DNA from: an uncultured Gammaproteobacteria bacterium
GTDB lineage: Bacteria > Patescibacteriota > Microgenomatia > CAZETR01 > Amesbacteraceae
Length of the DNA stretch: 64,000 nucleotides
Reading direction: 5' to 3'
Assembly (NCBI GenBank): GCA_964356225.1
Contig: CAYHGA010000001.1
Span: 29,573-93,572 of the forward strand
Positions 5,085-63,786 of the stretch are shown piece after piece. Each line of letters begins with the position of its first letter. Position 1 is the first letter of the stretch. The notes under the pieces are model-generated. The model did not search any database. It had not been told where the DNA came from and saw nothing but the letters and a program-made list of their open reading frames with translations. The position numbers and the translations under genes were made by a program.

Positions 5085-5735
5085 TTAATTTACCAGTTCG
5101 GCGCGGGCGACGAAGCGGCGGAGGTAGGTGCCCAGGGGGACGCAAGTGATAAGGGTGAGCTCGTTTTTATCATAGCGCTGGGCCAGGACTTCGATTTGGG
5201 AAGGGTCGACTTCGGTAGTGTTGCGCACTACATATTTATAGGTCACGCCGTCGTATTGGATGGTAATGGCATCGCCGACTTTAATTTTGGGGAGAGGATT
5301 AAAAATGGAAATGGGGTCATTAGGTTTGTAGAGAGCGGGTAAAGTAGAATGGCCAAAAATAACGGTGTTGCCATAATCTCCAGGAAGGGCCGTGCCAGAA
5401 AAGTGAATGGCATTTTTTTTCAAATCTGTGCCATTGATTTCTACAGGAACATCGCGAAGACCGAGCTTGGGTATAGATAGTGTGTAGTAGCGGACGCGGC
5501 TGACAGTGGGAGTAGAACTGGAAGCAGGAAACCAGGTGGTGGATTGAGTGTAATCTGGAGTGGTGATTCCTAAAACGCTGGCGACAAAAGGTACCGGAAC
5601 CAGGGCAACAGCAGTGGGATCTAAGAGGCGGGGACGAAGACTGAAACTCAACTGAGAAAGGCCAATGGGAACGATGACGCTGACAAGGAGAACTAAACCC
5701 ACTACTACAAGAGAGAGGGAGAGAAAACGGCGCAT
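5085..5735 (-). CDS. Sortase-family transpeptidase
   Basis: N-terminal signal anchor. Catalytic His (IFGHST), TLITC active-site Cys motif and a downstream Arg. 216 aa. Confidence 0.8.
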   Translation of the reverse strand: MRRFLSLSLVVVGLVLLVSVIVPIGLSQLSFSLRPRLLDPTAVALVPVPFVASVLGITTPDYTQSTTWFPASSSTPTVSRVRYYTLSIPKLGLRDVPVEINGTDLKKNAIHFSGTALPGDYGNTVIFGHSTLPALYKPNDPISIFNPLPKIKVGDAITIQYDGVTYKYVVRNTTEVDPSQIEVLAQRYDKNELTLITCVPLGTYLRRFVARAELVN

Positions 5736-7819: not shown

Positions 7820-9551
7820 AGATGCGGCGGACGCCAGCCGATACCGCTTCCTGGCGGGTTATCTTTATCCTACCAATTTCCCCCGTGGATTGCACATGAG
7901 GACCGCCGCACAGCTCTTTGGAAAAGTCGCCGATAGTGTAAACAGAAGTCATTTCCGGGTATTTTTCCGGGAAAAAGGCCATGGCGCCTTCGGCCAAAGC
8001 TTGAGATTTTTGCATTTCTTTTCTTGATACTGGAATATTGGCATCAATTTTTTCGTTTATTAAATCCTGAACTTTTTTAATTTCTTCTTCAGAAAGTTTT
8101 TGGGGATGCAAAAAATCAAACCGCAATCTCTCTGCTGTAATATTGCTGCCCTTTTGGGAAACGTGAGCTCCTAATACTTGACGTAGAGCTGCGTGCAGTA
8201 AATGAGTGGCGGTATGATATTTGGTAGCTATTTCAGAGTGATCTACTAATCCCCCCTTAAACATTCCCGCCGAAGCCGTACGTGAGAGTTCTTGGTGTTT
8301 ATTAAATTCTTTTTGAAATTCTGACCGATTAATTTCATTTCCTTTTTCTTTAGCTAATTCAGCTGTCAATTCCCAGGGGAAACCGAATGTTTGAAATAGA
8401 TCGAAAGCGATTTTGCCATCAACCAATTTTAATTTATTAAACTCTCTTAATCCGCGATCTAAAGTTTTTTCAAATTTACCAATTTCTTCTTGAAGGATAC
8501 GATGTATAAGAGATTTGTGGGTTAATAATTCTGGATAAAGCGGTGACATTAGGGAAACAAATACGTCGACGAGGTCGCTGGCGGCAGAAACATAAGATTT
8601 AATTCCCAATCTGTTTAATTGAAGTGTCGCCCGGCGAATGAGCCGCCGGAGAATATACCCCCGCTCTTTATTTGAGGGAGTTACGCTGTCACAAATTACA
8701 AATGCGGTGGCTCGGATATGATCAGCAATAATACGAAAAGATTTTTCATTTCTTAAATATTGCCGGTTTGAAAGTTGAGAAATTTTTTGAATTGCGGGCT
8801 GCCAAAGTTCGGTCAGATAGTCATCGTCTAGTCCGTTAACCACAGCTAGTGTTCGTTCCAATCCCATACCAGTGTCGACATTGGGTTGGGGAAGTTTTTC
8901 AAATTCACCCTTGGCATTTTTGTTGTATTGCATAAAGACATCGTTCCAAATTTCGGAAAAGCGGCCACAAGAACAGCCAGGTTTGCAACCTGGTCCGTGA
9001 GGTTTTTGGGTTATATCGTAATACATTTCAGTGTCTGGGCCACACGGGCCGGTAGCTCCAACTGGTCCCCACCAATTGTCTTTTTTAGGATAAAAGAAAA
9101 TTCTCTCATCGGGAATTCCCAGAGATTTCCAGATTTCGGCTGACTCGATATCTTTGGGCGCATCTTGATCCCCAGCAAAGCAGGTAATGTAAATTCTGTT
9201 GGGATCCAAATTTAACTCCTTGGTAAGAAACTCGTAGGACCAGGCAATGGCCTCTTTCTTGAAATAGTCTCCCAAAGACCAGTTACCCAACATCTCAAAA
9301 AAGGTGTGGTGAATTGTATCCCCTACCTCATCGATATCATCAGTGCGCAAACATTTTTGGACATCAACAAGTCGTTTTCCGGCTGGGTGGAGTTGGCCTA
9401 AAAGATATGGGACCAGAGGGTGCATGCCAGCGGTGGTAAAAAGAACCGAGGGATCGTTTTCGGGAACCAGGGGGGCGGAGGGAACTTCTACGTGTCCCCG
9501 GTCTTTAAAAAACTTCAGATATTTTTGCCTAATTTCGTTGGCTGTAATCAT
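7800..9551 (-). CDS. alaS: Alanine--tRNA ligase (short form: catalytic, tRNA-binding and editing domains, no C-Ala domain)
   Basis: AlaRS N-terminal blocks (EIRQKYLKFF..GH, LFTTAGM) and the editing-domain HxxxH (HTATHLLHAAL). 583 aa. Confidence 0.88.
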   Translation of the reverse strand: MITANEIRQKYLKFFKDRGHVEVPSAPLVPENDPSVLFTTAGMHPLVPYLLGQLHPAGKRLVDVQKCLRTDDIDEVGDTIHHTFFEMLGNWSLGDYFKKEAIAWSYEFLTKELNLDPNRIYITCFAGDQDAPKDIESAEIWKSLGIPDERIFFYPKKDNWWGPVGATGPCGPDTEMYYDITQKPHGPGCKPGCSCGRFSEIWNDVFMQYNKNAKGEFEKLPQPNVDTGMGLERTLAVVNGLDDDYLTELWQPAIQKISQLSNRQYLRNEKSFRIIADHIRATAFVICDSVTPSNKERGYILRRLIRRATLQLNRLGIKSYVSAASDLVDVFVSLMSPLYPELLTHKSLIHRILQEEIGKFEKTLDRGLREFNKLKLVDGKIAFDLFQTFGFPWELTAELAKEKGNEINRSEFQKEFNKHQELSRTASAGMFKGGLVDHSEIATKYHTATHLLHAALRQVLGAHVSQKGSNITAERLRFDFLHPQKLSEEEIKKVQDLINEKIDANIPVSRKEMQKSQALAEGAMAFFPEKYPEMTSVYTIGDFSKELCGGPHVQSTGEIGRIKITRQEAVSAGVRRIYATALS

Positions 9552-9634
9552 ACCCCTATTTTACATCAACGCTCCCAATAACTCCCTCTTACTCTCCGCA
9601 TAGCTTAATGAATAACTATGATTAGATTTACTAA

Positions 9635-10387
9635 TTAACTCAATACGTAATCCAGTTGACTTGCAATTACTTTATTGAAATCCTGCAAAAATTGGCTTAG
9701 AAAAACTTTGGATTCAACGAGAGGAAAGAGATCATTGTAGACAAATTGGGGATCTACTAAACCGACTTTGGTTTTCACCAAGTCCCGTATTTCCGAAAGA
9801 GTCTTTTTTTCTAAAAGGGACATCAATTGTTTGATATTTGGTTTGAGCGAATAGCCGGTTTTGGCAGAAAGCTGAAGTAACCAATATATGTCGAAAACAT
9901 CCCGTCCTTTAAACGGAATTTTTTGAAACTTACCCTTGAAAAAATTTCTATTTAAAAATGCAACTATCTTATTGGCGTAAAGAGTGGGCAGATCATAAGT
10001 ATTGACAAAAAATTGACGGTTATCAGCTGTAATTAAGCTTTTTTGTACATGATATTCTTTAGTAGTAATTTTTGAAAAATCACATCTCACAAAAATATTG
10101 TCAGGAAATTTTACAAACACGGTCGCATTATTACCGGATATCTTAGTTCCGGCTGATAGATATTTACCAAGATCTTTGGCAAACGTCTGAATATCAAATG
10201 ACGTGCTTGCCGGAATATCAAAATCCAAATCTTCAGACAAACGGTTTAAACCATACACTTTACGCAAACAGGTCCCACCGGTAAAGACTAACCTGTTATA
10301 AATCCCATCGTTATATACAAAATTTAGAATCTCGTCTTGCCAACGTTCCTTTATTAGATTCCTCTGATAAGTATTATCGTCGCTCAT
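9635..10387 (-). CDS. AbiEii/AbiGii-family nucleotidyltransferase (type IV TA toxin-like)
   Basis: LVFTGGTCLRKVYGLNRLSEDLDFD is the GGT..R.S.DLD signature of the DUF1814/AbiEii nucleotidyltransferase fold. It overlaps the upstream AbiEi-like gene by 14 nt. Confidence 0.7.
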   Translation of the reverse strand: MSDDNTYQRNLIKERWQDEILNFVYNDGIYNRLVFTGGTCLRKVYGLNRLSEDLDFDIPASTSFDIQTFAKDLGKYLSAGTKISGNNATVFVKFPDNIFVRCDFSKITTKEYHVQKSLITADNRQFFVNTYDLPTLYANKIVAFLNRNFFKGKFQKIPFKGRDVFDIYWLLQLSAKTGYSLKPNIKQLMSLLEKKTLSEIRDLVKTKVGLVDPQFVYNDLFPLVESKVFLSQFLQDFNKVIASQLDYVLS

Positions 10388-11057
10388 ATAAATATTGCAA
10401 TATTTTACTCATTTTTTTTGACTTGGATTTAGTCACAATCTCTTTAAATTCTTGCATGTCTGCGGCTGTAAAAACAGTCCAATTAAACCTTGAACCGAAT
10501 AAAAACTCCCGTGTTAACTGGTCAGTTATAAGCGGAGTCAGATATATAAAATCAAACATCGCCTTGGCTGGACTGGCAATTTTGTAAGAGAAATCTCCAT
10601 AGAATCTTTGTGTATACCCCCAAAACAAACCGGGTTTGATATTCCGGTATCTAAAACTCATAAGTTTGCTCTGAAACGTCCTGGTCTTCTTGGTGGTCAC
10701 ATTTGTGATGGTATATACACTTTCTGCTAATATTCCGTAAAGTGCCAATGCGTACTCTAAAGATATATAACTATCCCGCACTATTTCGCATCCAATATAT
10801 CTTGCCAATTCTTCTGGCGCGGATGATTTTTGATACAAAGTTTCGTTTAGATAAAATCCGGGTTTAATTGTATCCAACAAGCCTGCCTTTATGAGAGACC
10901 TAATGCGATAATCCAAAGTGCGGCGGTTGTTACCTAAAAGCACCTCTAGATTTTGCCTGGTAAAAAATGGGGCCGTGCTTTCTGAGATCAGTTTCTTGTA
11001 GTCTATTTCCATATGCACATAATTATATGTGCAACCGGAAACGGAGTCAAGTAGCAA
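10374..11057 (-). CDS. AbiEi-like antitoxin / transcriptional regulator
   Basis: N-terminal wHTH-like region (TRQNLEVLLGNNRRTLDYRIRSLIKAGLL) followed by a C-terminal domain. The probable true start is the ATG of MEIDYKK near 11012. Confidence 0.6.
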   Translation of the reverse strand: MLLDSVSGCTYNYVHMEIDYKKLISESTAPFFTRQNLEVLLGNNRRTLDYRIRSLIKAGLLDTIKPGFYLNETLYQKSSAPEELARYIGCEIVRDSYISLEYALALYGILAESVYTITNVTTKKTRTFQSKLMSFRYRNIKPGLFWGYTQRFYGDFSYKIASPAKAMFDFIYLTPLITDQLTREFLFGSRFNWTVFTAADMQEFKEIVTKSKSKKMSKILQYLYERR

Positions 11058-11099
11058 TTATGTTGCAAATAGGGGTGAGAAAGTAGATAATAGCAAGTA

Positions 11100-12374
11100 A
11101 TGGATCAACTTATTCCAACTATTACGGCAGAACCTCCTAAAACTAACTGGTTACTATTTTTGTTGGTGGGAATAGTTATTTTGAGTATGGGAATTGGGAT
11201 TGGATTATTTTTGGCAAAAAATATTTATCCGCCTTTGCAAAGTCTGCCCGCTTCAACTCCTTCTCCAACCCCAATCGCCGACCCCACCGCCAACTGGAAA
11301 ACATATACAATTGAAAAATTTGGAATCCAATTTAAACTTCCAAGCAAACTAAGCACTCTCGGGGATCTGGATATAAAAGAATGTGCTGGCGAAAAAGGCA
11401 TGGAATTTAGCGCCACACTACCCTCCAACAAATCATCCGGATATCTCATTTCCGTAGTCTATGCGGGAGGAGGATGTGCCGCACATAATCTATTCAGTAT
11501 GGGTGCAGTATCTTCTGATTATGAAGCCGGAAGAAGCAGGAGATTTACCGATACAAATGGGTACGTTTCCAAAACCGGAACATATTATTGCGTTGGCCCC
11601 GGTGCGGTCAGAAATGATGAAGTTCCGAGCCATCTCGCAAAAGAAATGGTTTCTAAAAATGGAGTTACCGTGTTGAGGATCATGGGTGAAGATGAATCCT
11701 ATGGAACTTGGCCAAAACTCTGTACTCCCGGCAGTGGCAAGATAGGAGCCTTAGTTAATCTTTCCAATAATAAAACGTTCCCGGGAATTGCAATCCAAAT
11801 GGATGTGACAGATCAACTTTCAGAAAACCTATTTGACCAAATCCTCTCCACGTTTAAATTCACGGGTGTCTCGGTCACTCCAACGCCAACTCCAACTCCA
11901 ACCATCACGCCAACCTCTAATCCAAAGACAACATATATCGTTCCCACTAGCTGGAAAAGACTTACCACCCAAAGTGGCCTGAATCTGTGTTTGCCACCCA
12001 AATGGGAAGTTGAGGCCTACGACCACCTTATTTTTAATCGGGATGAGGGATACAAACCGAGCATTACCTATATTACAAACCTTCCTTATTCAGGTGGCTC
12101 ACGGCGTGAAGCGTATTTTGCCTATTGGGTACAGGAATATCCGGATGTAAAGCAATTAGTTTCCGTAGCGGACACCGATATAAACGGAAATTCCGCCCTG
12201 ACTATCTATCCGGCGAACTCTTCTGACCCCAAGACATCCCCCGAGGGGTTAACGGTAGTCTGGTTTTCCGCCGGAAAACTATGGAAAGCGGGCCTGTCTG
12301 GTTGGAATATGACCAACGCCTCGCAAACGTCTTTTCTGAAGGACTTTTACACGATGATTAGCTGTAGCTTCTAA
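11100..12374 (+). CDS. Membrane-anchored secreted protein, paralog A (signal anchor, DPTANWKTYT motif, TP linker)
   Basis: N-terminal TM helix, TPSPTPIADPTANWKTYT, an internal TPTPTPTPTITPT linker and the QILSTFKF motif shared with the 13324..14019 protein. Confidence 0.6.
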   Translation: MDQLIPTITAEPPKTNWLLFLLVGIVILSMGIGIGLFLAKNIYPPLQSLPASTPSPTPIADPTANWKTYTIEKFGIQFKLPSKLSTLGDLDIKECAGEKGMEFSATLPSNKSSGYLISVVYAGGGCAAHNLFSMGAVSSDYEAGRSRRFTDTNGYVSKTGTYYCVGPGAVRNDEVPSHLAKEMVSKNGVTVLRIMGEDESYGTWPKLCTPGSGKIGALVNLSNNKTFPGIAIQMDVTDQLSENLFDQILSTFKFTGVSVTPTPTPTPTITPTSNPKTTYIVPTSWKRLTTQSGLNLCLPPKWEVEAYDHLIFNRDEGYKPSITYITNLPYSGGSRREAYFAYWVQEYPDVKQLVSVADTDINGNSALTIYPANSSDPKTSPEGLTVVWFSAGKLWKAGLSGWNMTNASQTSFLKDFYTMISCSF

Positions 12375-12421
12375 GTAACCGGCACTCACTAATCTGTCGT
12401 AGTTTGGGGTATAATTGAGAT

Positions 12422-12667
12422 ATGAGCTCTACCAGACCATATTTTTTGTGGGATTATGATTTGACCGAGAATGACGTCAGGAGGATTCTGCGTGGGGAAA
12501 ATCAAACAGACAAGATTTGGATTATGTCGAGGATTCTGGAAAGCGCCAAGTTTGAAGATGTTTGGAAATATACAACCTTGTCTGATGTCAGATCGATGAT
12601 GCCGATATTAAAAATCAAAAAACCTATCCGTCAAGCCTGGGAACGGGCCTTAACAATATGGCAGTAA
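12422..12667 (+). CDS. Small protein resembling the C-terminal domain of the AbiEi-like antitoxin (truncated antitoxin?)
   Basis: YFLWDYDLTENDVRRIL...MSRILE aligns by eye with FLFGSRFNWTVFTAADMQEFKEI...MSKILQYL at the C-terminus of the 10374..11057 protein. A TATAAT sits directly upstream, and the ORF overlaps the following NTase gene by 10 nt. Confidence 0.4.
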   Translation: MSSTRPYFLWDYDLTENDVRRILRGENQTDKIWIMSRILESAKFEDVWKYTTLSDVRSMMPILKIKKPIRQAWERALTIWQ

Positions 12668-13320
12668 ATTACGTACTCCAAGACAAATTTTTGAATTTAT
12701 TTTTTTTCGGCCGTTTTGCAGCGGATTTTTATCTGACGGGCGGTACAGCTCTGGTACGATTTTATTTTCAGCACCGCGAAAGTGTAGATTTGGATTTGTT
12801 TAGCCAAAATCAACAGTTGGATTTTTCGGCTGTAAATTTAGAGGTTGAACGTATTGGCCGTGAGTTAAAACTAATAACTATCAAACAAGTGACCACGAAC
12901 ACTTTTTTGCAATTTATATTTGAAAGTACAGAGGGAGATACATTGAAGGTGGATGTAGTTAAGGATATTCCGGTACATTTTGGAGAGTTTAAACAAGAGG
13001 GTAAAGTGAGATTGGACTCATTGGAAAATATAGGTTCAAATAAAATCACAGCTATTTTTGGCCGGACTGATCACAAAGATTTTATTGATTTATATTACAT
13101 TTTAAATAAGACAGATTTTACATTCGAACATTTGGTTTCGCTGGCTAAGCAGAAAGATTTGGGGTTAACCGAATTTTATCTGGCCAATTCGATTGATCAA
13201 ATTGAGCAGACTTCACAAATGCCGGTCTTACTAAAACCACTTGATATAAAGAAATACAACGAATTTTACAAAAAACTTTCCCGGGATTTATTTTTAAAAA
13301 TCAAACCAGAAGATAAATAA
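12658..13320 (+). CDS. AbiEii-family nucleotidyltransferase, second copy
   Basis: FYLTGGTALVRFYFQHRESVDLDLF carries the same GGT..R.S.DLD signature. Confidence 0.7.
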   Translation: MAVNYVLQDKFLNLFFFGRFAADFYLTGGTALVRFYFQHRESVDLDLFSQNQQLDFSAVNLEVERIGRELKLITIKQVTTNTFLQFIFESTEGDTLKVDVVKDIPVHFGEFKQEGKVRLDSLENIGSNKITAIFGRTDHKDFIDLYYILNKTDFTFEHLVSLAKQKDLGLTEFYLANSIDQIEQTSQMPVLLKPLDIKKYNEFYKKLSRDLFLKIKPEDK

Positions 13321-13323
13321 TCT

Positions 13324-14019
13324 ATGGATCAACCTATTCCAACTATTTCTCCGGTCGCCCCATCTCCCAAAACCAACTGGCTATTATTTTTGTTGACAGG
13401 AGTTGTGATTTTATTGGTTGGTATCACTGCCGGGCTTGTGATCGGAAAGTATATTTATGCTCCCAAACCCACCCCAACGGCCGACCCCACCGCCAACTGG
13501 AAAACATATACCAGTAATAAATATGATTATCAATTCAAATATCCCCAAATTCCACCCGAGGCCTCCAGCGCATTTAAATTTTCACTTAACGACAAACTGT
13601 CTGAACTATGGGGACCAGACAATCTAATTTTTAGAATTGAAGTATTTGAAAATATCAACAATCCGCAACTTTGGTGGGAAAATCAAGCTATTGAACCATT
13701 TACTAAACTGGCGGTGAACAACTTTGACTTCACAGAGACAACGCTAAACAGCTATCCAGGATACTCTGCTCAGGTCAAAACAGAATTTCAAGAACCAAAA
13801 AAGGTGTTTAGAACGTATGTGCTTAGCAATAATGATAATGTGTATCTAATTCACTCAGATTATGGTCAGTGGAGTAACCAAATCCTCTCCACGTTTAAGT
13901 TTGTGGAGCAGGCAACGCCGAAGCCGACGTGCAAGCCCAGACCGGCTTGCTTAGATACTTCACCCCGCTGTCTGCTTCCGGAAACATCTGACATGTGTCC
14001 ACCAAATCAGAAGTTATAA
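13324..14019 (+). CDS. Membrane-anchored secreted protein, paralog B
   Basis: The N-terminus (MDQPIPTISPVAPSPKTNWLLFLL...DPTANWKTYT) and the C-terminal NQILSTFKF are near-identical in pattern to the 11100..12374 protein. It starts 4 nt after the NTase stop. Confidence 0.6.
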   Translation: MDQPIPTISPVAPSPKTNWLLFLLTGVVILLVGITAGLVIGKYIYAPKPTPTADPTANWKTYTSNKYDYQFKYPQIPPEASSAFKFSLNDKLSELWGPDNLIFRIEVFENINNPQLWWENQAIEPFTKLAVNNFDFTETTLNSYPGYSAQVKTEFQEPKKVFRTYVLSNNDNVYLIHSDYGQWSNQILSTFKFVEQATPKPTCKPRPACLDTSPRCLLPETSDMCPPNQKL

Positions 14020-14403
14020 CGAATGGGAGTGTGATTTAAGCCAGGATGAGATTTCTTTGACTCCTGGTTTGGAATTGTCGACATAAACCATAAAATCTGC
14101 GGCTTCTTTGCGGTTTGATTTGAGGTGATAACCATTATCCCAGAGAAATTTATGAGTTACGGTCCAAGCTGTGCGTTTGTTGCCGTCGGTAAACGGGTGA
14201 TTTAAGCAAACGGATTGCAGGAGGGCCGCGGCTTTGGCAAAAAGGGTGGGGTAAAGATCTTGACCAGCGTAGGTAGCTTTGGGCCGCTCGAGGGCAGAAT
14301 GGAGGAGAGCAAAATCGCGAACCGCTGCTTTGGTGCCAGCCCTGACAATGATTATTTCATGAATACGATAGGCCTCTTCTATATTAACGATCTGCCAGTT
14401 CAT
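14014..14403 (-). CDS. doc: Doc (death-on-curing) Fic-family toxin
   Basis: HPFTDGNKRTA matches the Doc variant of the Fic motif, HxFx(D/N)GNKR. Confidence 0.8.
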   Translation of the reverse strand: MNWQIVNIEEAYRIHEIIIVRAGTKAAVRDFALLHSALERPKATYAGQDLYPTLFAKAAALLQSVCLNHPFTDGNKRTAWTVTHKFLWDNGYHLKSNRKEAADFMVYVDNSKPGVKEISSWLKSHSHSL

Positions 14404-56030: not shown

Positions 56031-56279
56031 ATGGCGGATATGCCTATAACTAAAGGTGCAATCAGGAAGCTACGGGCGGATAAAGGTAAGGCCCGGGTTA
56101 ATAACGTAATAAAACGGGCGTTTAGGGAATCCGTGTCTAAGATGCGCAAGCATCCGACCGTAAAAAATTTGGTGGAGGTCTACCGGAAACTGGACCGGGC
56201 GGCTAAATCTAAAGTGATTCACAAGAATAAAGCGAATCGGTTGAAATCTAGACTGTCCAAGTTGCTGAAAAAGAAGTAG
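56031..56279 (+). CDS. rpsT: 30S ribosomal protein S20
   Basis: 82-aa S20. Confidence 0.9.
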   Translation: MADMPITKGAIRKLRADKGKARVNNVIKRAFRESVSKMRKHPTVKNLVEVYRKLDRAAKSKVIHKNKANRLKSRLSKLLKKK

Positions 56280-56296
56280 TGTTGTACACTGGAAGA

Positions 56297-58114
56297 ATGC
56301 TACGAAAAGGATTTGTTGGTATCGAGTTGGCAGTAATGGTGGTGATGGTAATGGGGCTGATCGCTGGAACAAAGCAAATTTCAGATCTCACCCAAAAGTT
56401 CCTAATCAAGAACAAAGCGGCTGGACAAGTTACTTGTTCTTCAAATTGCGCATCTGGTTCCAGTGGTGAATATAATTTCTGCTACAACGAATGCGTTCCG
56501 GGGAAAACCGGTTACTCCCGGCCCATTGGTTGTAATTCCAGTGGTTGGGTGAGAGGAAATGATCAAGTTGATTCGGCTTGCGGCTCCGCACCCGCGCCTA
56601 CTCCGGTATCCCCAGGTCCCACTCCGACTGGCGCTCCAACTCCAGGTGATGGACCTTACGGTAAAAATTGGGGGAATACGTGTAACGGTATAAATTATGG
56701 GGGCTGCAGTCCTGGTTACCGTTGCGTAGGCAATCTTTGTAGTGGATATAACTGTTTTAAGCTTGATTCGTCATGTGGGGGAGTACCACCGTCAACTATC
56801 TGTCAACCTGGCCATTGTGATTACGGAGGATCAAACCTAGGCTGGAGAAAGTGCAATGGCAACGGCACGGCTTACGACGGAAATAAATACACAGATAATA
56901 CTTGCTCCACTGTCGCCGGTGGAGGACCTACCCCAACTCCAAAATCCGGTGCGACACCTACGCCAAGACCTACTCCGACTCCACCTTCGACATGTGCTCA
57001 ATATTACAGTCTCGCTGATTGTAATAGTGCTTCATGCTCTTGGTATAACTGTGGGGGCAAGTCTCCGGGCTGTTTCCCGGGTGGGACGTTGATGGCGGTT
57101 GCCTGTCCCACCACCCCAACCCCAACGCCGACCCCAAGACCTACTCCAACCCCGACTCCTGTTGTGGATTGTACCAAGATTCCCTACTCTGACTGTAATA
57201 CTTCACTTAACAATGGAAACTCTCGGTGTGCTTGGTACAACTGTTATGATGGAACAGCTGGCTGTTTTTCTAAAGGTACGCCAGATACTGTTGCTTGTCC
57301 AAACCTCGCTCCAACGCCAACCCCAACGCCAACCCCAAGACCTACTCCCACCCCGACCCCAAAACCCACGCCCACTCCGACTCCAACCCCTAAATCCGAA
57401 CCTAGATATAATTATGATCTCTCTACTTATCGCTGTGTTGAGGCTCAAGATGGATATTATCCTTCTTTCTCCGCTTGTGAACAGAACTATGCTGTACTAA
57501 ATGTGCCATACTGTAAGTCGGATGGGTTTCTGTGTTATGCAGCAAATACCGATGGATCTTGTAAGACTACAATACAATGTTATCCAGGAACTGTTTGCAC
57601 AGGCTCACCAAGATTCGCTAAATGTGCTCTCGCTTCTTCTCCCCCCACTCCCACTCCAACTCCGACGCCTGCTGCTGAGAATAACGGCTGGACTGGTCAA
57701 TACTGTGCTGGAGGGCTCCTTGGATCTCCGAAGAGTATCTGCAAACCCGGTCTGCCTCCTACATGCGAGCCCTGCAATAGTTGCTCCGGAAATTACGGAT
57801 ACGCCGTAGGCGCTGGTTGTTCTCCAATTTCAACCCCAACTCCAACCCCAACTCCAACTCCTACGCCCGTCGCTGGCCAAGGCTGGACTAATCAATACTG
57901 CACAGGAGGGTCTTCGAGAAGTATCTGCACTTTTAGTTTCCCTCCTACATGTTCCCCTTGCAACAGTTGTTCCGGAAATATTGGGTATGCCGTGTGCAAC
58001 GGTTCTTCGCTAATTCCTACGACCGATTCTACTCCCGCGGTTGCTCCTAAGACCCCTCGTCCTTTCTACTGCATAAACTTCTTTGGCTGGAACCCATGTG
58101 GAGTTGTCCAGTAG
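56297..58114 (+). CDS. Type IV pilin-like protein with a large C-terminal region of Cys-rich modules separated by (TP)n linkers
   Basis: Class III signal peptide MLRKG|FVGIELAVMVVMVMGLIAG (cleavage-site Gly, Phe at +1, Glu at +5). The following ~580 aa carry more than 60 Cys in repeated modules (DC..C.WYNC...GCF..GT...VACP twice; GW..QYC.GG......C.....PPTC.PCNSCSGN.GYAV twice) joined by TPTPTP runs. The ORF track's 56279 start is a GTG overlapping the rpsT stop. Confidence 0.6.
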   Translation: MLRKGFVGIELAVMVVMVMGLIAGTKQISDLTQKFLIKNKAAGQVTCSSNCASGSSGEYNFCYNECVPGKTGYSRPIGCNSSGWVRGNDQVDSACGSAPAPTPVSPGPTPTGAPTPGDGPYGKNWGNTCNGINYGGCSPGYRCVGNLCSGYNCFKLDSSCGGVPPSTICQPGHCDYGGSNLGWRKCNGNGTAYDGNKYTDNTCSTVAGGGPTPTPKSGATPTPRPTPTPPSTCAQYYSLADCNSASCSWYNCGGKSPGCFPGGTLMAVACPTTPTPTPTPRPTPTPTPVVDCTKIPYSDCNTSLNNGNSRCAWYNCYDGTAGCFSKGTPDTVACPNLAPTPTPTPTPRPTPTPTPKPTPTPTPTPKSEPRYNYDLSTYRCVEAQDGYYPSFSACEQNYAVLNVPYCKSDGFLCYAANTDGSCKTTIQCYPGTVCTGSPRFAKCALASSPPTPTPTPTPAAENNGWTGQYCAGGLLGSPKSICKPGLPPTCEPCNSCSGNYGYAVGAGCSPISTPTPTPTPTPTPVAGQGWTNQYCTGGSSRSICTFSFPPTCSPCNSCSGNIGYAVCNGSSLIPTTDSTPAVAPKTPRPFYCINFFGWNPCGVVQ

Positions 58115-58159
58115 ATTGTAAATACTACTAAAGCCGGAAATAATTGTTATACTAAGAAC

Positions 58160-58687
58160 ATGGCTGCCCTGGGTAGTATTAATTTGTTGCCTAAGTCTGA
58201 TTTTGAGGCTTCTTTCTGGGGGAAATTTTTGAAGTGGGGACTGACCACCGGGAGATACTTAGTGATTTTGACGGAGCTAGTAGTAATCGCCGCGTTTTTA
58301 TCCAGATTTAAATTGGATTGGGATTATGCGGCAGTAAGAGACAGAATTAATGGAAAAAGAGCGGTGTTGACGGCGATGGCCGAAACGGAAAGAAGATTTA
58401 GATTGGCCCAGAGCAGGCTGGGAGCAGCCGGAAAAATTATGGGGGGGCAATTAGAAGCGGCGAAGGAAATCGAAAAAGTGACAGCCAAAGTTCCCGCGGG
58501 AGTGGTGTTAACTGATGTGACCGTGTCTGACAAAATGATAACGGTTTCGGGAAGCGCCAGCAGTGCGGATAAATTTGGAATCTTTTTGTCCCGTTTGACG
58601 GCAAGCGGTGACTGGAAAAGCGTAGGGGTGAAAAGTTTATCAGATGACGGACAAGCGGGATTTAAATATTTAATATGGCTCAATTAG
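58160..58687 (+). CDS. PilN-like pilus assembly protein
   Basis: N-terminal INLLP signature, a single TM helix and a periplasmic domain. Confidence 0.6.
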   Translation: MAALGSINLLPKSDFEASFWGKFLKWGLTTGRYLVILTELVVIAAFLSRFKLDWDYAAVRDRINGKRAVLTAMAETERRFRLAQSRLGAAGKIMGGQLEAAKEIEKVTAKVPAGVVLTDVTVSDKMITVSGSASSADKFGIFLSRLTASGDWKSVGVKSLSDDGQAGFKYLIWLN

Positions 58688-59235
58688 ATTACAAAAGCAG
58701 TTTGGCCCAATACCGCAGATATTTGGCGGCGGTGCGAGAGCAACCCTTATTTGCCGCCAGTTTGGGGTTGGTGCTGTCTCTGACGTTAATAATAATTCTG
58801 GTGTTAGCAGCCCTGCGGCCAACTTTAGTGACTATTGCCTCACTGCTAGGAAATATTCAGCAACAAAGCGATGTGGAGAAAAGACTGGACAAAAAAATTG
58901 CAGAGATAACTGCGGCCCAAGCAGAGTATTTGAAAAACGAATCCAGGTTGGGTGTGCTGGATGAAGCATTGCCGGTGGGCCAGAAATATGCGGCCTGGGG
59001 AATGAGATTGGAGACCGCCGCTTCTGAAAGCGGTGTGAAAGTGATGGAATGGTCGCTTCTGGATGGAAAAGATTTCAGTGTTTCTTTAAGCGGAGACGTG
59101 GCGGGATTGAAACGGTTTTTGGCCACTATGGAAAACTTGCGGCGGTTGGTGGAAGTCAAGAGTATACAGTTTGCTAAAGAAAAAGAACTGACGTTAGTTG
59201 TGAAGGGAGTCTTAAAATCATATGAAGAAAAATAA
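58675..59235 (+). CDS. PilO-like pilus assembly protein
   Basis: TM helix plus a coiled-coil and PilO-like periplasmic domain. It overlaps the PilN-like gene. Confidence 0.45.
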   Translation: MAQLDYKSSLAQYRRYLAAVREQPLFAASLGLVLSLTLIIILVLAALRPTLVTIASLLGNIQQQSDVEKRLDKKIAEITAAQAEYLKNESRLGVLDEALPVGQKYAAWGMRLETAASESGVKVMEWSLLDGKDFSVSLSGDVAGLKRFLATMENLRRLVEVKSIQFAKEKELTLVVKGVLKSYEEK

Positions 59236-59422
59236 AACTGACCGGCAAGTTGTGGTAGTGCTGGTTATGACTTTGATTACGCTGGTAGCCTGGGTGGGGT
59301 TTGAAGTTTACCGGACATATACTCTGGTAAACATCCCCCCAGTTTCCGACAAACTGCTGCTGGAGTTGTCTCCCACGCTGGATATTTCCGTGCTGGAAAA
59401 ATTAGAAAGCAGGACACCATGA
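59222..59422 (+). CDS. Small membrane protein in the pilus locus
   Basis: 66 aa with one TM helix, overlapping both neighbouring genes. Confidence 0.35.
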   Translation: MKKNKTDRQVVVVLVMTLITLVAWVGFEVYRTYTLVNIPPVSDKLLLELSPTLDISVLEKLESRTP

Positions 59423-60690
59423 GAAAAAGAGAGCTGACTATTCCTACAATTTTGGGAGTTCTGGCTATAATCGGAGGGCTGATAGGGGGAGTAGTGTTAT
59501 TGAACAAACCATTAAGAGGTTTGGTGGGGGCTAGCCCGGAAGAAACTCCAAAAGAAGTCAAGATTACTAATATTTCCGACACCAGTTTTGTGGTGAGCTG
59601 GGTGACAGACAAATCCACTTCCGGTTATGTCCAATATAACGGAGGATTGGTGGTGTCCGATGACCGGGATCAAGAACGAGGGGAAATCGGAAACTATTTT
59701 ACCCATTTGGTGACTATTAAGGCGCTCAAAGCGGAGACGGGGTACAGTTTTAAAATAGGATCGGGGAAAAGTTTGTATGATAATTCGGGGAAGTTGTATC
59801 AGATAACAACGGCTACCGCAGTAAGCCAGGTTCCGGTAGCGGACGTGGCTTATGGGCAAGTGGTTACAGCCAGCGGTGATCCGGTAGAGGGAGCAATTGT
59901 ATATTTGTCCCTGCCAGGAGCGGTTTCCCAGGCAGCACTAACTAAGTCTTCGGGGTCATGGGTAATTCCAATGGCGGTTGCCAGAAGCGCAGATCTAACT
60001 GGTTATGCGGCTTATGACCGGGAAAAAGAAAAGATCGAAATAACGGTTCAAGCCGGAGCATTGGGAACTTCTGTGGTCAATACTACGACGGGGACGACTA
60101 AGCCGGTGGCAAATATAACTTTGGGGGAAAACAGAAGCGGAGAAACACCGGCACCTACACCGGTAGCGGGATCAAAGTTTTCCCCGGGAGCGCTGGCCAC
60201 TGATACGGGGGAGACTCTGGTGATTTTGACTCCTAAATCCGGGGAAAAAGTTAATTCCCAGAAACCGGAAATTATGGGTAAGGCCCCGGCGGGAAGCAAA
60301 GTGACTATTAAAGTGGAATCTTCCCAATTATTTACCGAGACTTTAACTGCGAGCGAAAATGGGGACTGGACTTATGGAGTTCCGGAAGACTTGGAACCGG
60401 GTGAGCATACGATAACAGTAACTTCGATTATTGATGGGGTAACAAAAACTATTAAGAAAAGTTTTGTGGTGGAAGCGGCGGGAGTTTCCAATGCCCCCGC
60501 CAGAGTGGCCACTCCGTCAGCAACACTAAAACCCACTCCTAAACCGACGCCCACAATTGCTCCAAGGGTGGCTTACCCGTCTACTGAATCCGGGACGCCC
60601 ACGTCCGGTAACTTGACTCCGACTTTAATTTTACTCATACTGGGAGCGGGGCTGGTGTTAGCTGGTGCCACTTCATATAGAAAAATCTAA
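59419..60690 (+). CDS. Membrane-anchored surface protein with FN3-like and Ig-like domains and a C-terminal TM anchor
   Basis: N-terminal signal anchor; KEVKITNISDTSFVVSWVTDKSTSGYVQY is FN3-like; a later Big-like region; C-terminal LTPTLILLILGAGLVLAGATSYRKI. Confidence 0.45.
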   Translation: MRKRELTIPTILGVLAIIGGLIGGVVLLNKPLRGLVGASPEETPKEVKITNISDTSFVVSWVTDKSTSGYVQYNGGLVVSDDRDQERGEIGNYFTHLVTIKALKAETGYSFKIGSGKSLYDNSGKLYQITTATAVSQVPVADVAYGQVVTASGDPVEGAIVYLSLPGAVSQAALTKSSGSWVIPMAVARSADLTGYAAYDREKEKIEITVQAGALGTSVVNTTTGTTKPVANITLGENRSGETPAPTPVAGSKFSPGALATDTGETLVILTPKSGEKVNSQKPEIMGKAPAGSKVTIKVESSQLFTETLTASENGDWTYGVPEDLEPGEHTITVTSIIDGVTKTIKKSFVVEAAGVSNAPARVATPSATLKPTPKPTPTIAPRVAYPSTESGTPTSGNLTPTLILLILGAGLVLAGATSYRKI

Positions 60691-62012
60691 TGGATCCTGT
60701 CCAAGACCCGAAAACTAATTTACCGCCAACGATTATGCCAACGACTGAAGACGTTGTTCCTACTCCCCCACCTACTCCCATATCCCCTCCCTCACCCGTC
60801 CCGATAATTGAGCCCCCAATAGGTCCGGCGCCGGTTCCGGCGAGCGACAGTGGCGACAACGCCCAGATTATAAAACCAAAGGTTAAATGGGGCAAGGGAG
60901 CGCTGATCGGAAGTGTGGCGGCATTGATGGTGCTGGTGGTGGGGTTGGGTTTTGGGTTGTGGCAGATAAGACAAAATCAAAATATAAAACCTTTAAAAGC
61001 AGGGCTTTGTGATTCCACCTCCCCCAATATCACTTGTGTAATTACTGACAACAAATGCGTCTGGAAACCAGATAATTCAGGGGCCTGTCTGGATAACTGG
61101 TATATTCCGGGTACTGAATATTTTTGCGGTGAAGGAGCTCCTGGGCAAACCATAACTTATGGTTGTACGGATGGATATTATCCGACCAAGGCAACTTGTG
61201 ACGCAAGAGACGGGGGAGTTCAAGGATCTAGCGTATGTCAGGGTTCTAGCGGTGGGCCGACGCCGACGCCGACACCGCCGGGGGCGACGTGTAATTCGAC
61301 AACCACAGCGGAAGTAAATATAAACGGGAGTGGATGGACAAGTAGTAATGGGCTAGTGAGACCGGGAGATAGTGTGCAATTTAGAGCGGCACCGGCTGGC
61401 GGGAGAACTGCGCTGCTACTTAATACCACTGGGCAAACGGGCAGCCAGTGTTCAAGCGACCCGGGAGCAGGGGTTGCATGTCCAGGCGGGCCGGTGTTGA
61501 TGGATAACGGTTGGTGGGGAAACTATGTGGGGCAAACTATAAGTGTGAGTGCGTTTCAATTCGGAAGTAACTGGTACACGTCGCTCGGCGGAAGTTGTGA
61601 AGATAGTTTGAGCTTGACGATTGTGCCTATTGGCCCCACTCCGACGCCCACTCCAACACCAATTTCTACCCCGACCCCCACTCCGACGCCCACTCCAACA
61701 CCAACGCCGCCGCCGGGGCCGAGTTCGCAGTGTCAGAGAATGATAGCTATCCGAGGTACGGAGGAAATTGCTTCGGCCAATTGGGTCACCACTTTACAGC
61801 CCGGAGACGTGGTGGTGTTCAGAGGGTTTGCCAGTGCCAGTAACACTACGGTGACGGCAATTAATTTCTCGATTACTATAAATGGCGGAACTCCACAGCA
61901 AATTCCGGGGACTAATTTTCAGCTGGTGGGGGGCGTGTGGCAAGCGGATACGGGATCGATAACTATTGCAGCCGGAAGTTATTCGGTGGTGGCTACCCCG
62001 ATTTACCCATAA
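60690..62012 (+). CDS. Membrane-anchored Cys-rich surface protein with (TP)n linkers
   Basis: Pro-rich N-terminus, a TM helix, Cys-rich modules, and PTPTPTPP and TPTPTPTPISTPTPTPTPTPTPTPPP linkers. Confidence 0.45.
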   Translation: MDPVQDPKTNLPPTIMPTTEDVVPTPPPTPISPPSPVPIIEPPIGPAPVPASDSGDNAQIIKPKVKWGKGALIGSVAALMVLVVGLGFGLWQIRQNQNIKPLKAGLCDSTSPNITCVITDNKCVWKPDNSGACLDNWYIPGTEYFCGEGAPGQTITYGCTDGYYPTKATCDARDGGVQGSSVCQGSSGGPTPTPTPPGATCNSTTTAEVNINGSGWTSSNGLVRPGDSVQFRAAPAGGRTALLLNTTGQTGSQCSSDPGAGVACPGGPVLMDNGWWGNYVGQTISVSAFQFGSNWYTSLGGSCEDSLSLTIVPIGPTPTPTPTPISTPTPTPTPTPTPTPPPGPSSQCQRMIAIRGTEEIASANWVTTLQPGDVVVFRGFASASNTTVTAINFSITINGGTPQQIPGTNFQLVGGVWQADTGSITIAAGSYSVVATPIYP

Positions 62013-62586
62013 TTTTATGGATGCAAAACCACAAATTAATGTTATCAGACCAAAGGGCGGTTTTAGCCTGCCGAAACTGCCTAAACTCAACCCGGTGATG
62101 ATAGTGGTGGCTACGGTGATTTTAGCTCTGGTGTCGGTAATTTCGGCCATACTGCTGTATCAGAAAAAACAAGAGCCAGTGGCGCCGAATGTGGGCGTGC
62201 CCAGCCGGGCAGCGGAAGGAACAGCGTGTGTGGCCAACTTTATAATATCTGCTTCCCCAACTCCTACACCAACTGAAGGACCAACGCCTACCCCAACACC
62301 GACACCCACGCCAACCCCCACGCCGGGATCCGGGAAGCCAAATAATTGTGGTGGAACTTGTGGATCAAATGCCAATTGTGAAGGCGGGCTGTTCTGCTAT
62401 GACACCGGAGTGCAAAAATATTGCCGGAACCCGCAAAATCCAACCAGCGAGACGTGTGCTGGAGCGGCTCCAACACCTACTCCAGCGGCATTGCAACAAG
62501 CTGGAGACGTGATGGGGACGTGGACTGTTTCAATCGCGGGAGCGATATTACTAATACTTGGATCTGTGGTAATGTTTGCGCTATAA
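61966..62586 (+). CDS. Small Cys-rich membrane protein with a TP linker and a C-terminal TM anchor
   Basis: The probable start is MDAKPQ near 62017. It has a TM helix, PTPTPTEGPTPTPTPTPTPTPTPG, the module CGGTCGSNANCEGGLFCYD...C and a C-terminal hydrophobic anchor. Confidence 0.4.
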   Translation: MQPEVIRWWLPRFTHNFMDAKPQINVIRPKGGFSLPKLPKLNPVMIVVATVILALVSVISAILLYQKKQEPVAPNVGVPSRAAEGTACVANFIISASPTPTPTEGPTPTPTPTPTPTPTPGSGKPNNCGGTCGSNANCEGGLFCYDTGVQKYCRNPQNPTSETCAGAAPTPTPAALQQAGDVMGTWTVSIAGAILLILGSVVMFAL

Positions 62587-62589
62587 AAA

Positions 62590-63786
62590 TCAGCGCCAGG
62601 AGGGAAGCCAAAAGTATTGATCGACCAAGGTTTTAGGAAGGTGAATGCCTACCCACATTGGATAAAAATAGATAAAGGCTCCCAGAATTAAGATACTAGA
62701 TGTTATGGTGGCCCATCTGGGCAATTTAGAAAGAGTATAGGCCAAAGCAATGCAGAGAAAAGGGACCGAGGGAAGATAATGATAGAGAAACATAATGCGA
62801 GGAGCGCGGGCCCAGGGGAGCCAGAAAGTTAAATATCCAATCACGATAATTCCCAATTTCCAATCACGTTTTTTCAAGGCGTGATACGCTGTAAAAACAA
62901 TGGCCGGGATGCCCAGCCACCAGAGAATGGGGTTGCCCATACCGTAAATGTTGGCGATTTTATCGCCGGCGTAATCTACAAAGTACCAAACCGGCCGGAG
63001 CATAACAGGCCAAGTCCACCAGGAGGATTGGTAAGTATGAGTGGCTTTGAGGCTAGTGTTGTACCACCACATTTGATTTTGTAATTCCAGGAAATTTTTC
63101 CAGGAGCCGCCGAGAATAAAATATTGAGAATATGAAAGAACATATAAAACTGCAGGAATAAAAATCAACGAAATAAAAATAGAGGGCCATTTGCGAAAGC
63201 GGGTAATATTCTGTAAACCAATCCATGTTCCAAAAACAGCAATGGCGTAAAGGCCTGTCCATTTGGTAGCAATCAAGAGACCGAGAGAAAACGCGAGAGG
63301 GATTAGGTTATAGGTTCTAGGTTTTAGTTGATAGCGAATAAAGGTCCAGAAAGATAGCAGAATGAAAAAGGTGGCGACAATGTCGTTCATATTAATACGC
63401 GATGAAGTAAGAAGCAGGCCATCGAGGGCCGCCAGGGCGGCTGCGAAAAGAGCCCAACGCTTGGAGCTTAGTAAATCACTGGAAATTAAATAAACAAGAT
63501 AAACAACGCCGGTGCCGATTAAAACGTTGGCGATGCGCCAGCCGAAAGAATTGGGGCCAAAAATGAGAATACCGGTGGCGCCCATTAACTTAGCAAGTGG
63601 TGGGTGTGTCCAACCATAAGCGGTACCCGGAGGGGTGGTATGAAACCATTCGTAGGCGTCTTTGTTACCTTTAGCCATTTCCAGAGTAGTAAATGCGTTA
63701 TAGACCTCGTCGAAATAAAAGTTGGGCGGGTAGGAAATATTGAAAACGCGGGTTATAAAAGTAAAGGCTAGAATTAGGCCGAGCAT
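62590..63786 (-). CDS. PMT-family (GT39/PMT_2-like) polyprenol-phosphate-sugar glycosyltransferase
   Basis: The N-terminal loop-1 motif FDEVY and the HPPLAKL block are characteristic of protein O-mannosyltransferase-type GT-C enzymes. It is polytopic, 398 aa. Confidence 0.6.
   Translation of the reverse strand: MLGLILAFTFITRVFNISYPPNFYFDEVYNAFTTLEMAKGNKDAYEWFHTTPPGTAYGWTHPPLAKLMGATGILIFGPNSFGWRIANVLIGTGVVYLVYLISSDLLSSKRWALFAAALAALDGLLLTSSRINMNDIVATFFILLSFWTFIRYQLKPRTYNLIPLAFSLGLLIATKWTGLYAIAVFGTWIGLQNITRFRKWPSIFISLIFIPAVLYVLSYSQYFILGGSWKNFLELQNQMWWYNTSLKATHTYQSSWWTWPVMLRPVWYFVDYAGDKIANIYGMGNPILWWLGIPAIVFTAYHALKKRDWKLGIIVIGYLTFWLPWARAPRIMFLYHYLPSVPFLCIALAYTLSKLPRWATITSSILILGAFIYFYPMWVGIHLPKTLVDQYFWLPSWR

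Follow-up and report, generated by a model that had tools for sequence, protein, structure and literature searches.

A strain-specific modular cysteine-rich protein with a pilin-like N-terminus, probably Sec-exported and not a pilin, encoded between rpsT and pilN in a Woesebacteria-like bacterium

Results

A 605-residue modular protein encoded next to pilN

We analysed a stretch of 64,000 nucleotides (nt) of contig CAYHGA010000001.1 (hereafter the window), in which the open reading frame (ORF) at 56297-58114 on the plus strand had been predicted from the sequence to encode a giant pilin-like protein. The gene encodes 605 amino acids (aa) counted from the ATG, with the stop codon at 58112-58114, and an in-frame GTG at 56279 would serve as an alternative start adding six residues. 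It lies between rpsT, which encodes ribosomal protein S20, and the pilus-related genes pilN and pilO. The predicted architecture, disulfide-rich modules on Thr-Pro (TP) linkers after an N-terminal hydrophobic segment, was upheld by our analysis, whereas the pilin identity was not. We consider it probable that the product is not a pilin but a Sec-exported, strain-specific modular protein of the cell surface.

The ORF itself withstood examination. An identical 605-aa gene call is present, with 0-1 nt differences, in independent Logan and European Nucleotide Archive (ENA) assemblies from the Hainich groundwater well H52 (L001, L002 and L004; we cite assemblies and contigs by L numbers and homologous proteins by P numbers), so that the ORF is a genuine gene and belongs to an existing population. 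Nor did it arise by chance: homologues of its modules A, B, D and E occur in other metagenomic proteins. The G+C content across the gene (0.45-0.53) is the same as in its flanks, so that a foreign origin judged by composition was rejected. The negative GC skew of the gene is attributable to its ACC and CCA codons, and a scan for promoters and terminators gave nothing exceeding expectation.

The composition of the protein is extreme, with 84 Pro, 72 Thr, 71 Gly, 55 Ser and 50 Cys residues; the more than 60 cysteines originally reported were a miscount. The 50 cysteines are distributed over eight modules as 6/10/6/6/8/6/6/2, each count being even. Two pairs of internally repeated mini-domains had been described, and both pairs were recovered (E1 and E2 with 65% identity, E = 3e-17; C1 and C2 with 43% identity, E = 8e-7), but the set of eight cysteine modules extends beyond these pairs. 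Six TP-rich linkers separate the modules (aa 98-118, 211-231, 271-289, 335-366, 448-459 and 511-525), and they are encoded, as had been noted, by imperfect ACN-CCN repeats with a period of 6/12. AlphaFold2 modelling of the full protein without an alignment gave a mean predicted local distance difference test (pLDDT) score of 37 and was usable just for an N-terminal helix at residues 7-38, itself of low confidence.

The N-terminus resembles a prepilin only in its bare pattern

The pilin-like appearance of the N-terminus, MLRKGFVGIELAVMVVMVMGLIAG, is genuine: in MLRKG/FVGIE, a short basic leader ends in Gly (G5, position -1) and is followed by Phe at +1 (F6) and Glu at +5 (E10), which fits the prepilin pattern G/F-x-x-x-E. 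It is the sole G-F-x-x-x-E site in the window and in all fetched loci. Scored with our own ungapped matrix, a provisional one constructed from 20 prepilin N-termini, the site ranked first among 83,491 positions in the window and its relatives, but its 9.4 bits barely reach the range that true pilins span in leave-one-out scoring (8-75 bits). A HMMER profile derived from the same 20 N-termini, in which bias correction acts on hydrophobic segments, gave the 605-aa protein no rank.

This motif, K-G-F-x-x-I-E-L, and the adjacency to pilN/pilO were the only points in favour of a class III signal and a giant pilin, and the independent tests were contrary. Neither Pfam PF07963 nor NCBIfam TIGR02532, the N_methyl profiles, matched the full protein at E <= 1 or the isolated residues 1-46 or 1-97 at E <= 10, at which level HMMER filters may still hide very weak matches. 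A phmmer search with residues 1-46 against all Protein Data Bank (PDB) sequences gave 0 matches at E <= 10, whereas the positive control, a pilin consensus N-terminus, retrieved 23 chains of pilins or pseudopilins with E-values as low as 6e-12. After the hydrophobic helix, no globular pilin module (alpha1C on an antiparallel beta sheet) was found; a six-cysteine beta module occupies that place instead. Judged by the definition of modular pilins in Raynaud et al. (2021), the protein has extra modules, but neither a match to an IPR012902-equivalent profile nor a detectable pilin module. The window also lacks the expected partners: no PilD- or PilC-like polytopic membrane ORF was found within its 64 kb, where the only polytopic proteins are FtsK, SecY, MurJ and a PMT-family protein, reading of the translations revealed no PilB, PilM or PilT, and a canonical pilin motif is absent. 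The prepilin resemblance of the 605-aa protein is thus limited to the bare pattern.

Module A defines a family that shares an N-terminal signal

An exhaustive phmmer search against 1.84e9 representative proteins returned 518 matches, most of which fell on the TP linker and about a dozen of which were real. Within a 14-protein comparison set, pairwise BLAST related modules A, B, D and E to homologues at 36-63% identity (E = 1e-9 to 1e-24), the E-like module of P0109 being weaker (41% identity, E = 2.5e-4). Module A accounts for matches to P0093, P0094, P0095, P0098, P0101, P0102, P0106, P0108 and P0128 (36-63% identity; best phmmer E-value 1.6e-16), and module B for matches to P0097, P0122 and P0109 (48-52%). 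Three homologues carry Peptidase_M64-like domains, and none of the homologues gave an N_methyl match. A word-index search detected nothing but TP-linker matches when the full protein was used and no match at E <= 0.1 once the linkers had been removed, and no relatives emerged when species-representative genomes were scanned with the linker-less protein or the module-A alignment. The exact 605-aa sequence is absent from a collection of 15 billion proteins, which explains why the first searches returned no self-match; a 440-aa protein of the same locus and MurJ are likewise absent from it, and PilN, PilO and a 423-aa neighbour are present.

Several apparent matches were discarded. Modules of the EGF, toxin or defensin type were rejected, the per-module Pfam matches (Myticin, EB and Agouti; E >= 0.03, below cut-offs) being noise, as were NCBIfam matches to TonB and to an internalin Pro-rich linker, which reflect low complexity, and PDB sequence matches, which were confined to linkers. 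A full-text literature search on the juxtamembrane motif (DIRSRA and similar) returned nothing relevant.

Thirteen copies of module A share the invariant residues C47, C51, C62, C66, G72, C79, D92 and C95, and thus six cysteines, together with an F-C-Y-N-E-C core. The copies stand either directly behind an N-terminal hydrophobic segment or internally (P0094, P0095, P0098, P0108 and P0128). AlphaFold2 predicted module A to be a small beta domain, with pLDDT > 90 over approximately aa 45-95, and a comparison of this fold with the PDB gave no match; the structural check proposed for the cysteine modules returned, for module A, a model without a pilin fold.

The hydrophobic segment and module A align as one unit by BLAST with P0101 (query aa 4-95), P0102 (aa 7-95) and P0093 (aa 9-95). 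In an alignment of 11 N-termini, K4-G5 aligns with a conserved [R/H/V]-G pair. The +1 residue is Glu in 7/11 (RGEMATAL, RGEITTAL, VGEISTLL, HGEISLII and similar) and Phe solely in the 605-aa protein and P0109 (ERGFVQFL, with Leu at +5), and Glu at +5 is unique to the 605-aa protein. The family N-terminus is mostly [R/H]G-E-[IVM]-x-T; G-F-x-x-x-E is not conserved across these homologues, the Gly alone being kept. The equivalent of A41, by contrast, is invariant in all 11 family members, with S, T or N at -3 in most of them. This Ala precedes the first cysteine of module A by 2-6 residues in 9/11, in the context (S/T/N)-(K/R/L)-A, with which N39-K40-A41/A42 of the 605-aa protein aligns. It is retained in a shorter homologue without module A and is missing ahead of internal module-A copies. 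The invariant Ala thus resembles a signal-peptidase I site, behind n- and h-regions that are both present in the putative signal. If A41 were used for cleavage, the hydrophobic segment would be removed and no pilin helix would be possible. The pilin-like first residues of the 605-aa protein seem to have arisen by chance, as a variation on an ordinary signal for export. What we found comes close to the outcome that had been named beforehand as contrary to a pilin, namely modules of a non-pilin family behind a conventional signal.

Other loci illustrate the range of the family, which is undescribed, has so far been met in metagenomes only and is apparently of candidate phyla radiation (CPR) origin, of the Microgenomates type. 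The N-terminus [KN]x[RH]GE[IVM][AST]T recurs at L016 8001-11763, L018 1007-5232 and L019 546-3011, and two different L018 proteins start with MKKLFSxRGEIT. Several members end in a Cys loop, [FY]C.P...EC. Small transmembrane (TM) proteins with a Cohesin (PF00963) match adjoin family genes, which hints at a dockerin/cohesin-like attachment.

The rpsT-pilN interval is a variable cassette slot

Upstream of the 605-aa gene lie genes for MurJ (minus strand) and ribosomal protein S20 (plus strand). Downstream on the same strand, 45 nt away, follows a series encoding PilN (PF05137, with an INLLP motif), a PilO-like protein, a 66-aa TM protein, a 423-aa fn3/Big_13 protein with TM segments at both termini, a 440-aa TM/Cys/TP protein and a 189-aa TM/TP/Cys protein; a PMT-family glycosyltransferase gene comes next on the opposite strand. 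The homologues of PilN place the organism among Woesebacteria/Microgenomates-type CPR bacteria, in keeping with the CPR assignment first proposed. The cluster past rpsT (58160-63786 in the window) is conserved across Woesebacteria-like relatives (L007, L009, L010, L012 and L013) and comprises pilN, pilO-like, 66-aa TM, fn3/Big_13, TM/Cys/TP, TM/TP with a C-terminal TM segment and, on the opposite strand, PMT. Because no pilM, pilB, pilC or pilD adjoins it, the cluster may represent an unusually composed module of the envelope or of a pilus platform.

The 605-aa gene does not belong to this conserved arrangement. In six related contigs, pilN follows rpsT within 12-25 nt and no gene lies between them: the slot is empty in L012 and L014, whose PilN is 83-85% identical, and in L007, L009, L010 and L013 (50-63%). 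In L025-L027 (PilN 89% identical) it is occupied by a different allele, of which only L025 extends far enough upstream to be compared. What this allele has in common with the 605-aa gene is confined to module D (58% identity) and a TP linker, and CarboxypepD_reg-like beta domains replace E1/E2 and the tail. Since the gene is absent in some relatives and replaced by another allele in L025, the rpsT-pilN interval is a variable cassette slot. The direct succession of rpsT and pilN in relatives also indicates that the adjacency of the 605-aa gene to pilN/pilO is variable, probably recent and unlikely to reflect a conserved operon.

The ATG of the 605-aa gene lies within a copy of the pre-pilN spacer (TACACT-N6-ATG versus TATACT-N6-ATG), and the native spacer is kept before pilN. 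A flanking direct repeat was considered as a target-site duplication and set aside; it is short, lies just ~2 standard deviations (SD) above shuffled sequences and is suggestive at most. The -10-like hexamer TATACT (TACACT at the 605-aa gene) stands exactly 6 nt before the ATG of pilN in all relatives and of the inserted gene (window 56283-56299 and 58145-58162; L012 289-303; L007 7989-8003), a spacing typical of leaderless transcripts, which suggests that the start of the inserted gene is a copy of that of pilN.

The three homologue loci examined (P0093, P0101 and P0109) contain no type IV pilus genes. P0093 is encoded between nusG and rplK, P0101 beside DUF4185 and cohesin-like genes, and P0109 among unrelated genes. 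In L016, another CPR genome, P0093 and three further surface-protein genes lie between nusG and rplK (7046-14210). These two genes are normally contiguous, so that the insertion parallels the one between rpsT and pilN in the window.

Table 1. Features of the 605-aa gene and its surroundings (window coordinates).
Feature	Coordinates	Strand	Remarks
Spacer of 17 nt past the rpsT stop codon (TGTTGTACACTGGAAGA)	56280..56296	+	Resembles the spacer between rpsT and pilN in relatives (TATACTGGAAGT-ATG)
Complete gene, 605-aa modular cysteine-rich protein, probably at the surface	56297..58114	+	Same call in L001, L002, L004
aa 1-25, basic n-region and hydrophobic segment (MLRKG FVGIE LAVMVVMVMGLIAG T)	56297..56371	+	Class-III-like motif K4-G5-F6...E10
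aa 26-43, polar juxtamembrane stretch ending N39-K40-A41/A42-G43	56372..56425	+	A41 invariant; putative -1 residue for signal peptidase I
Module A, aa 44-97, 6 Cys	56426..56587	+	C-x3-C-x10-C-x3-C-x12-C-x15-C
Linker 1, aa 98-118	56588..56650	+	Pro, Thr, Ala and Gly abundant
Module B, aa 119-210, 10 Cys	56651..56926	+	48-52% identity to P0097, P0122, P0109
Linker 2, aa 211-231	56927..56989	+	TP-rich
Module C1, aa 232-270, 6 Cys	56990..57106	+	43% identity to C2
Linker 3, aa 271-289	57107..57163	+	(TP)n
Module C2, aa 290-334, 6 Cys	57164..57298	+	Repeat of C1
Linker 4, aa 335-366	57299..57394	+	Longest (TP)n run; draws most low-complexity database matches
Module D, aa 367-447, 8 Cys	57395..57637	+	58% identity to the gene that precedes pilN in L025
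Linker 5, aa 448-459	57638..57673	+	
Module E1, aa 460-510, 6 Cys	57674..57826	+	65% identity to E2
Linker 6, aa 511-525	57827..57871	+	(TP)n
Module E2, aa 526-570, 6 Cys	57872..58006	+	E-like module in P0109, 41% identity
C-terminal tail, aa 571-605, terminal Cys loop FYCINFFGWNPC	58007..58111	+	Comparable [FY]C.P...EC loop ends homologues (read by eye)
Spacer of 45 nt preceding pilN, ending GAAATAATTGTTATACTAAGAAC	58115..58159	+	Native pre-pilN sequence of relatives; similarity only ~2 SD above shuffles
pilN, INLLP motif (context)	58160-58687	+	
pilO-like (context)	58675-59235	+	
PMT-family protein O-mannosyltransferase homologue (context)	62590..63786	-	Kept here in relatives whose contigs extend that far

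Discussion

A Sec-exported surface protein as the probable identity

In the explanation that we regard as probable, the basic-hydrophobic N-terminal segment would direct Sec export and would then either stay as a membrane anchor or be removed by signal peptidase I after N39-K40-A41. The eight small modules would fold outside the cell with one to five disulfides each, which the even cysteine counts make plausible, as does the enrichment of MdbA/VKOR-type disulfide machinery in CPR (bioRxiv 10.1101/335083). Modules and linkers together would form a long, stiff, protease-resistant fibril, like beads on a string, that presents binding modules beyond the wall. The six TP linkers would serve as extended spacers and are probably O-glycosylated by the PMT homologue of the cluster, by analogy with mycobacterial Pmt, which O-mannosylates Thr in Pro/Thr-rich regions of Sec substrates. 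Modules are exchanged between strains, presumably via recombination in the repetitive linker DNA, and the protein may act in strain-specific attachment or surface variation.

Several observations weigh against this explanation. With its five-residue basic leader, K-G-F-x-x-I-E-L is a good match to the prepilin pattern, the best of all matrix-scored sites, and ordinary signal anchors rarely have a Glu in the first turn of the hydrophobic segment. The gene lies directly upstream of pilN-pilO on the same strand, with its ATG in what was ancestrally the pilN initiation region. The proposed signal-peptidase site stands 17 residues past the hydrophobic core, unusually long for a c-region. Moreover, TM segments behind long N-terminal extensions are followed by the K-A motif as well, so that this motif is perhaps not a cleavage site, and the anchor may be retained.

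Alternatives to a Sec-exported surface protein

The strongest alternative, which we nevertheless regard as unlikely, is that of a true type IV (minor) pilin with a modular build. Cleavage by PilD would occur after G5, and the retained helix (F1...E5 of the mature protein) would insert into a pilus built by machinery that includes PilN/PilO, displaying a 560-aa cysteine string as an adhesin at the tip or along the fibre. Apart from the motif, a continuous helix at 7-38 is predicted, with low confidence, and the gene is a close upstream neighbour of pilN-pilO. The INLLP motif of PilN is PilM-binding, so that pilus machinery probably exists in the organism. Large-module pilins are, moreover, an established and widespread class that includes very large CPR members, such as an 860-aa protein of Candidatus Falkowbacteria (PMC8179133). 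Like modular type IV pilins such as Streptococcus sanguinis PilB/PilC, the 605-aa protein has a basic leader with Gly, Phe at +1, Glu at +5, a hydrophobic helix and large C-terminal extra modules, and its gene also stands beside pilN/pilO. It differs from them in lacking the IPR012902/PF07963 signature and any similarity to solved pilins, and in place of a globular alpha-beta pilin module it has module A, a repeated six-cysteine unit. Its N-terminal homologues do not carry G-F-x-x-x-E, and those at the three loci examined are not encoded near pilus genes. The matrix score at the very bottom of the true-pilin range, the absence of the gene from the slot in close relatives, which places it outside the conserved pilN cluster, and the lack of PilD, PilB, PilC, PilM, PilT or a canonical pilin in the window likewise argue against this alternative. 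Even as a pilin, the protein would add a new variant to the established class of modular pilins and would not open a category of its own.

In a more radical version, to which we give rather little credence, the protein could be a new type IV filament subunit, a pilin reduced to the alpha1 helix without a globular domain, with a divergent [K/R]-G-[F/E] signal processed by a CPR prepilin peptidase. A glycosylated, 560-residue string of disulfide knots would then be borne on a pilus as a strain-specific host-recognition fibre, possibly throughout the module-A family.

It is also conceivable, though distinctly improbable, that the protein is cleaved, released and held non-covalently, its C-terminal Cys loop docking to a separate anchor such as a cohesin-like protein. 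The invariant Ala before module A, the [FY]C.P...EC loop that ends family members, and the cohesin-domain proteins with an N-terminal TM segment encoded beside P0101 and two genes from P0093 are consistent with such an arrangement. However, no cohesin-like gene was detected near the 605-aa gene, the C-terminal loop of its product is longer and only loosely similar, and the docking scheme is conjectural throughout.

Least probable of all, and in our view very doubtful, is a new class-III-like sorting signal common to the module-A family (basic leader and Gly, Glu or Phe, hydrophobic helix), processed by a prepilin-peptidase-like enzyme or another dedicated system and represented in the 605-aa protein by one variant: the [R/H/V]-G in register with K4-G5, the Glu that follows it in most N-termini and the start shared by the two L018 proteins, as the pilins of one system share N-termini, agree with it. 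Against it stand the invariant Ala ahead of the first Cys, which suggests signal peptidase I, and the lack of pilus and peptidase genes beside family members at the loci examined. Furthermore, no class III signal is known to have Glu at +1, and ordinary Sec signals often carry basic residues and a Gly where the n- and h-regions meet.

Comparison with known and neighbouring proteins

For a Sec-exported modular surface protein, the closest functional analogy is offered by mucin-like proteins with PT linkers that are exported by Sec and O-mannosylated by PMT (mycobacterial Apa-type proteins, and the PT linkers of cellulosomal and actinobacterial secreted enzymes). They are alike in the N-terminal export signal, in the small modules between (TP)n linkers and in the PMT homologue that is present in our cluster. 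The 605-aa protein differs in its tiny disulfide-knot modules, in having no detectable enzyme or known binding domain, and in its CPR origin; its glycosylation is putative.

By sequence, the closest relatives are the module-A proteins (P0093, P0101, P0102, P0095, P0094, P0098, P0108 and P0128; L020-L024), which share the signal and module A (36-63%), the Cys pattern, the invariant Ala and TP linkers, and several of which have the C-terminal Cys loop. They differ in their RG-E-[IVM]-x-T start, compared with KG-F-V-G-I-E, and in their downstream modules (M64 peptidase, Cys and beta domains), and none of the loci examined adjoins pilN/pilO.

Neighbours within the cluster repeat the same design, a TM segment, then K-A, then Cys modules and TP linkers, in some cases behind an N-terminal extension of 65-85 aa. 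In the 440-aa TM/Cys/TP protein, its orthologues and P0106, the TM segment and K-A resemble the N-terminus of the 605-aa protein (31-35% over 31-39 aa), and the 440-aa protein also has Cys-rich modules, TP linkers and a variable middle. It and its orthologues differ in the Pro-rich cytoplasmic extension of 65-85 aa before the TM segment and in a conserved C-terminal domain of ~90 aa, and the protein is present in all relatives whose contigs extend there. Pam pili of CPR, which are built of Sec-dependent donor-strand-exchange pilins with Ig folds (bioRxiv 10.64898/2026.03.03.709456), were considered on account of the Ig-like neighbours and rejected, as Ig-fold pilins are unrelated to the Cys-module protein.

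Further surface proteins of the window

Orthologues of the 440-aa protein (60690-62012) occur in L007, L009, L010, L012 and L013. Their conserved parts are the Pro-rich N-terminal extension of ~65 aa, the TM segment and the C-terminal domain of ~90 aa (CQR...ATPIYP); the Cys-rich middle is entirely different between relatives, which makes this a second hypervariable surface protein of the cluster. The 423-aa and 189-aa proteins have TM-like tails (…GNLTPTLILLILGAG… and …QAGDVMGTWTV…) that may serve as sorting signals of an unconventional kind. A sortase (PF04203, E = 4e-25) is encoded within 5085-7819 on the minus strand, adjoining a 694-aa protein that has a single TM segment at its centre and matches Baseplate_J weakly. 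Two paralogues on the plus strand (11100-12374 and 13324-14019) have near-identical N-termini (MDQ(L)IPTI…PKTNWLLFLL…ADPTANWKTYT), one TM segment, TP stretches and 4-6 Cys, and no Pfam match; they are additional lineage-specific surface proteins.

Significance

A G-F-x-x-x-E pattern adjoining pil genes is insufficient for calling a pilin, as this gene illustrates. Were the protein a pilin after all, the definition of type IV pilins would be extended. Module A is a new small domain family without a match among solved structures and is suited to structural work. Little of the surface-protein repertoire of CPR bacteria, which are presumed to live attached to other cells, has been annotated. The locus provides a concrete strain-specific surface protein, present, absent or replaced between rpsT and a conserved pilN-pilO envelope cluster, and its shuffled disulfide-knot modules make it a candidate determinant of partner or phage specificity at the strain level.

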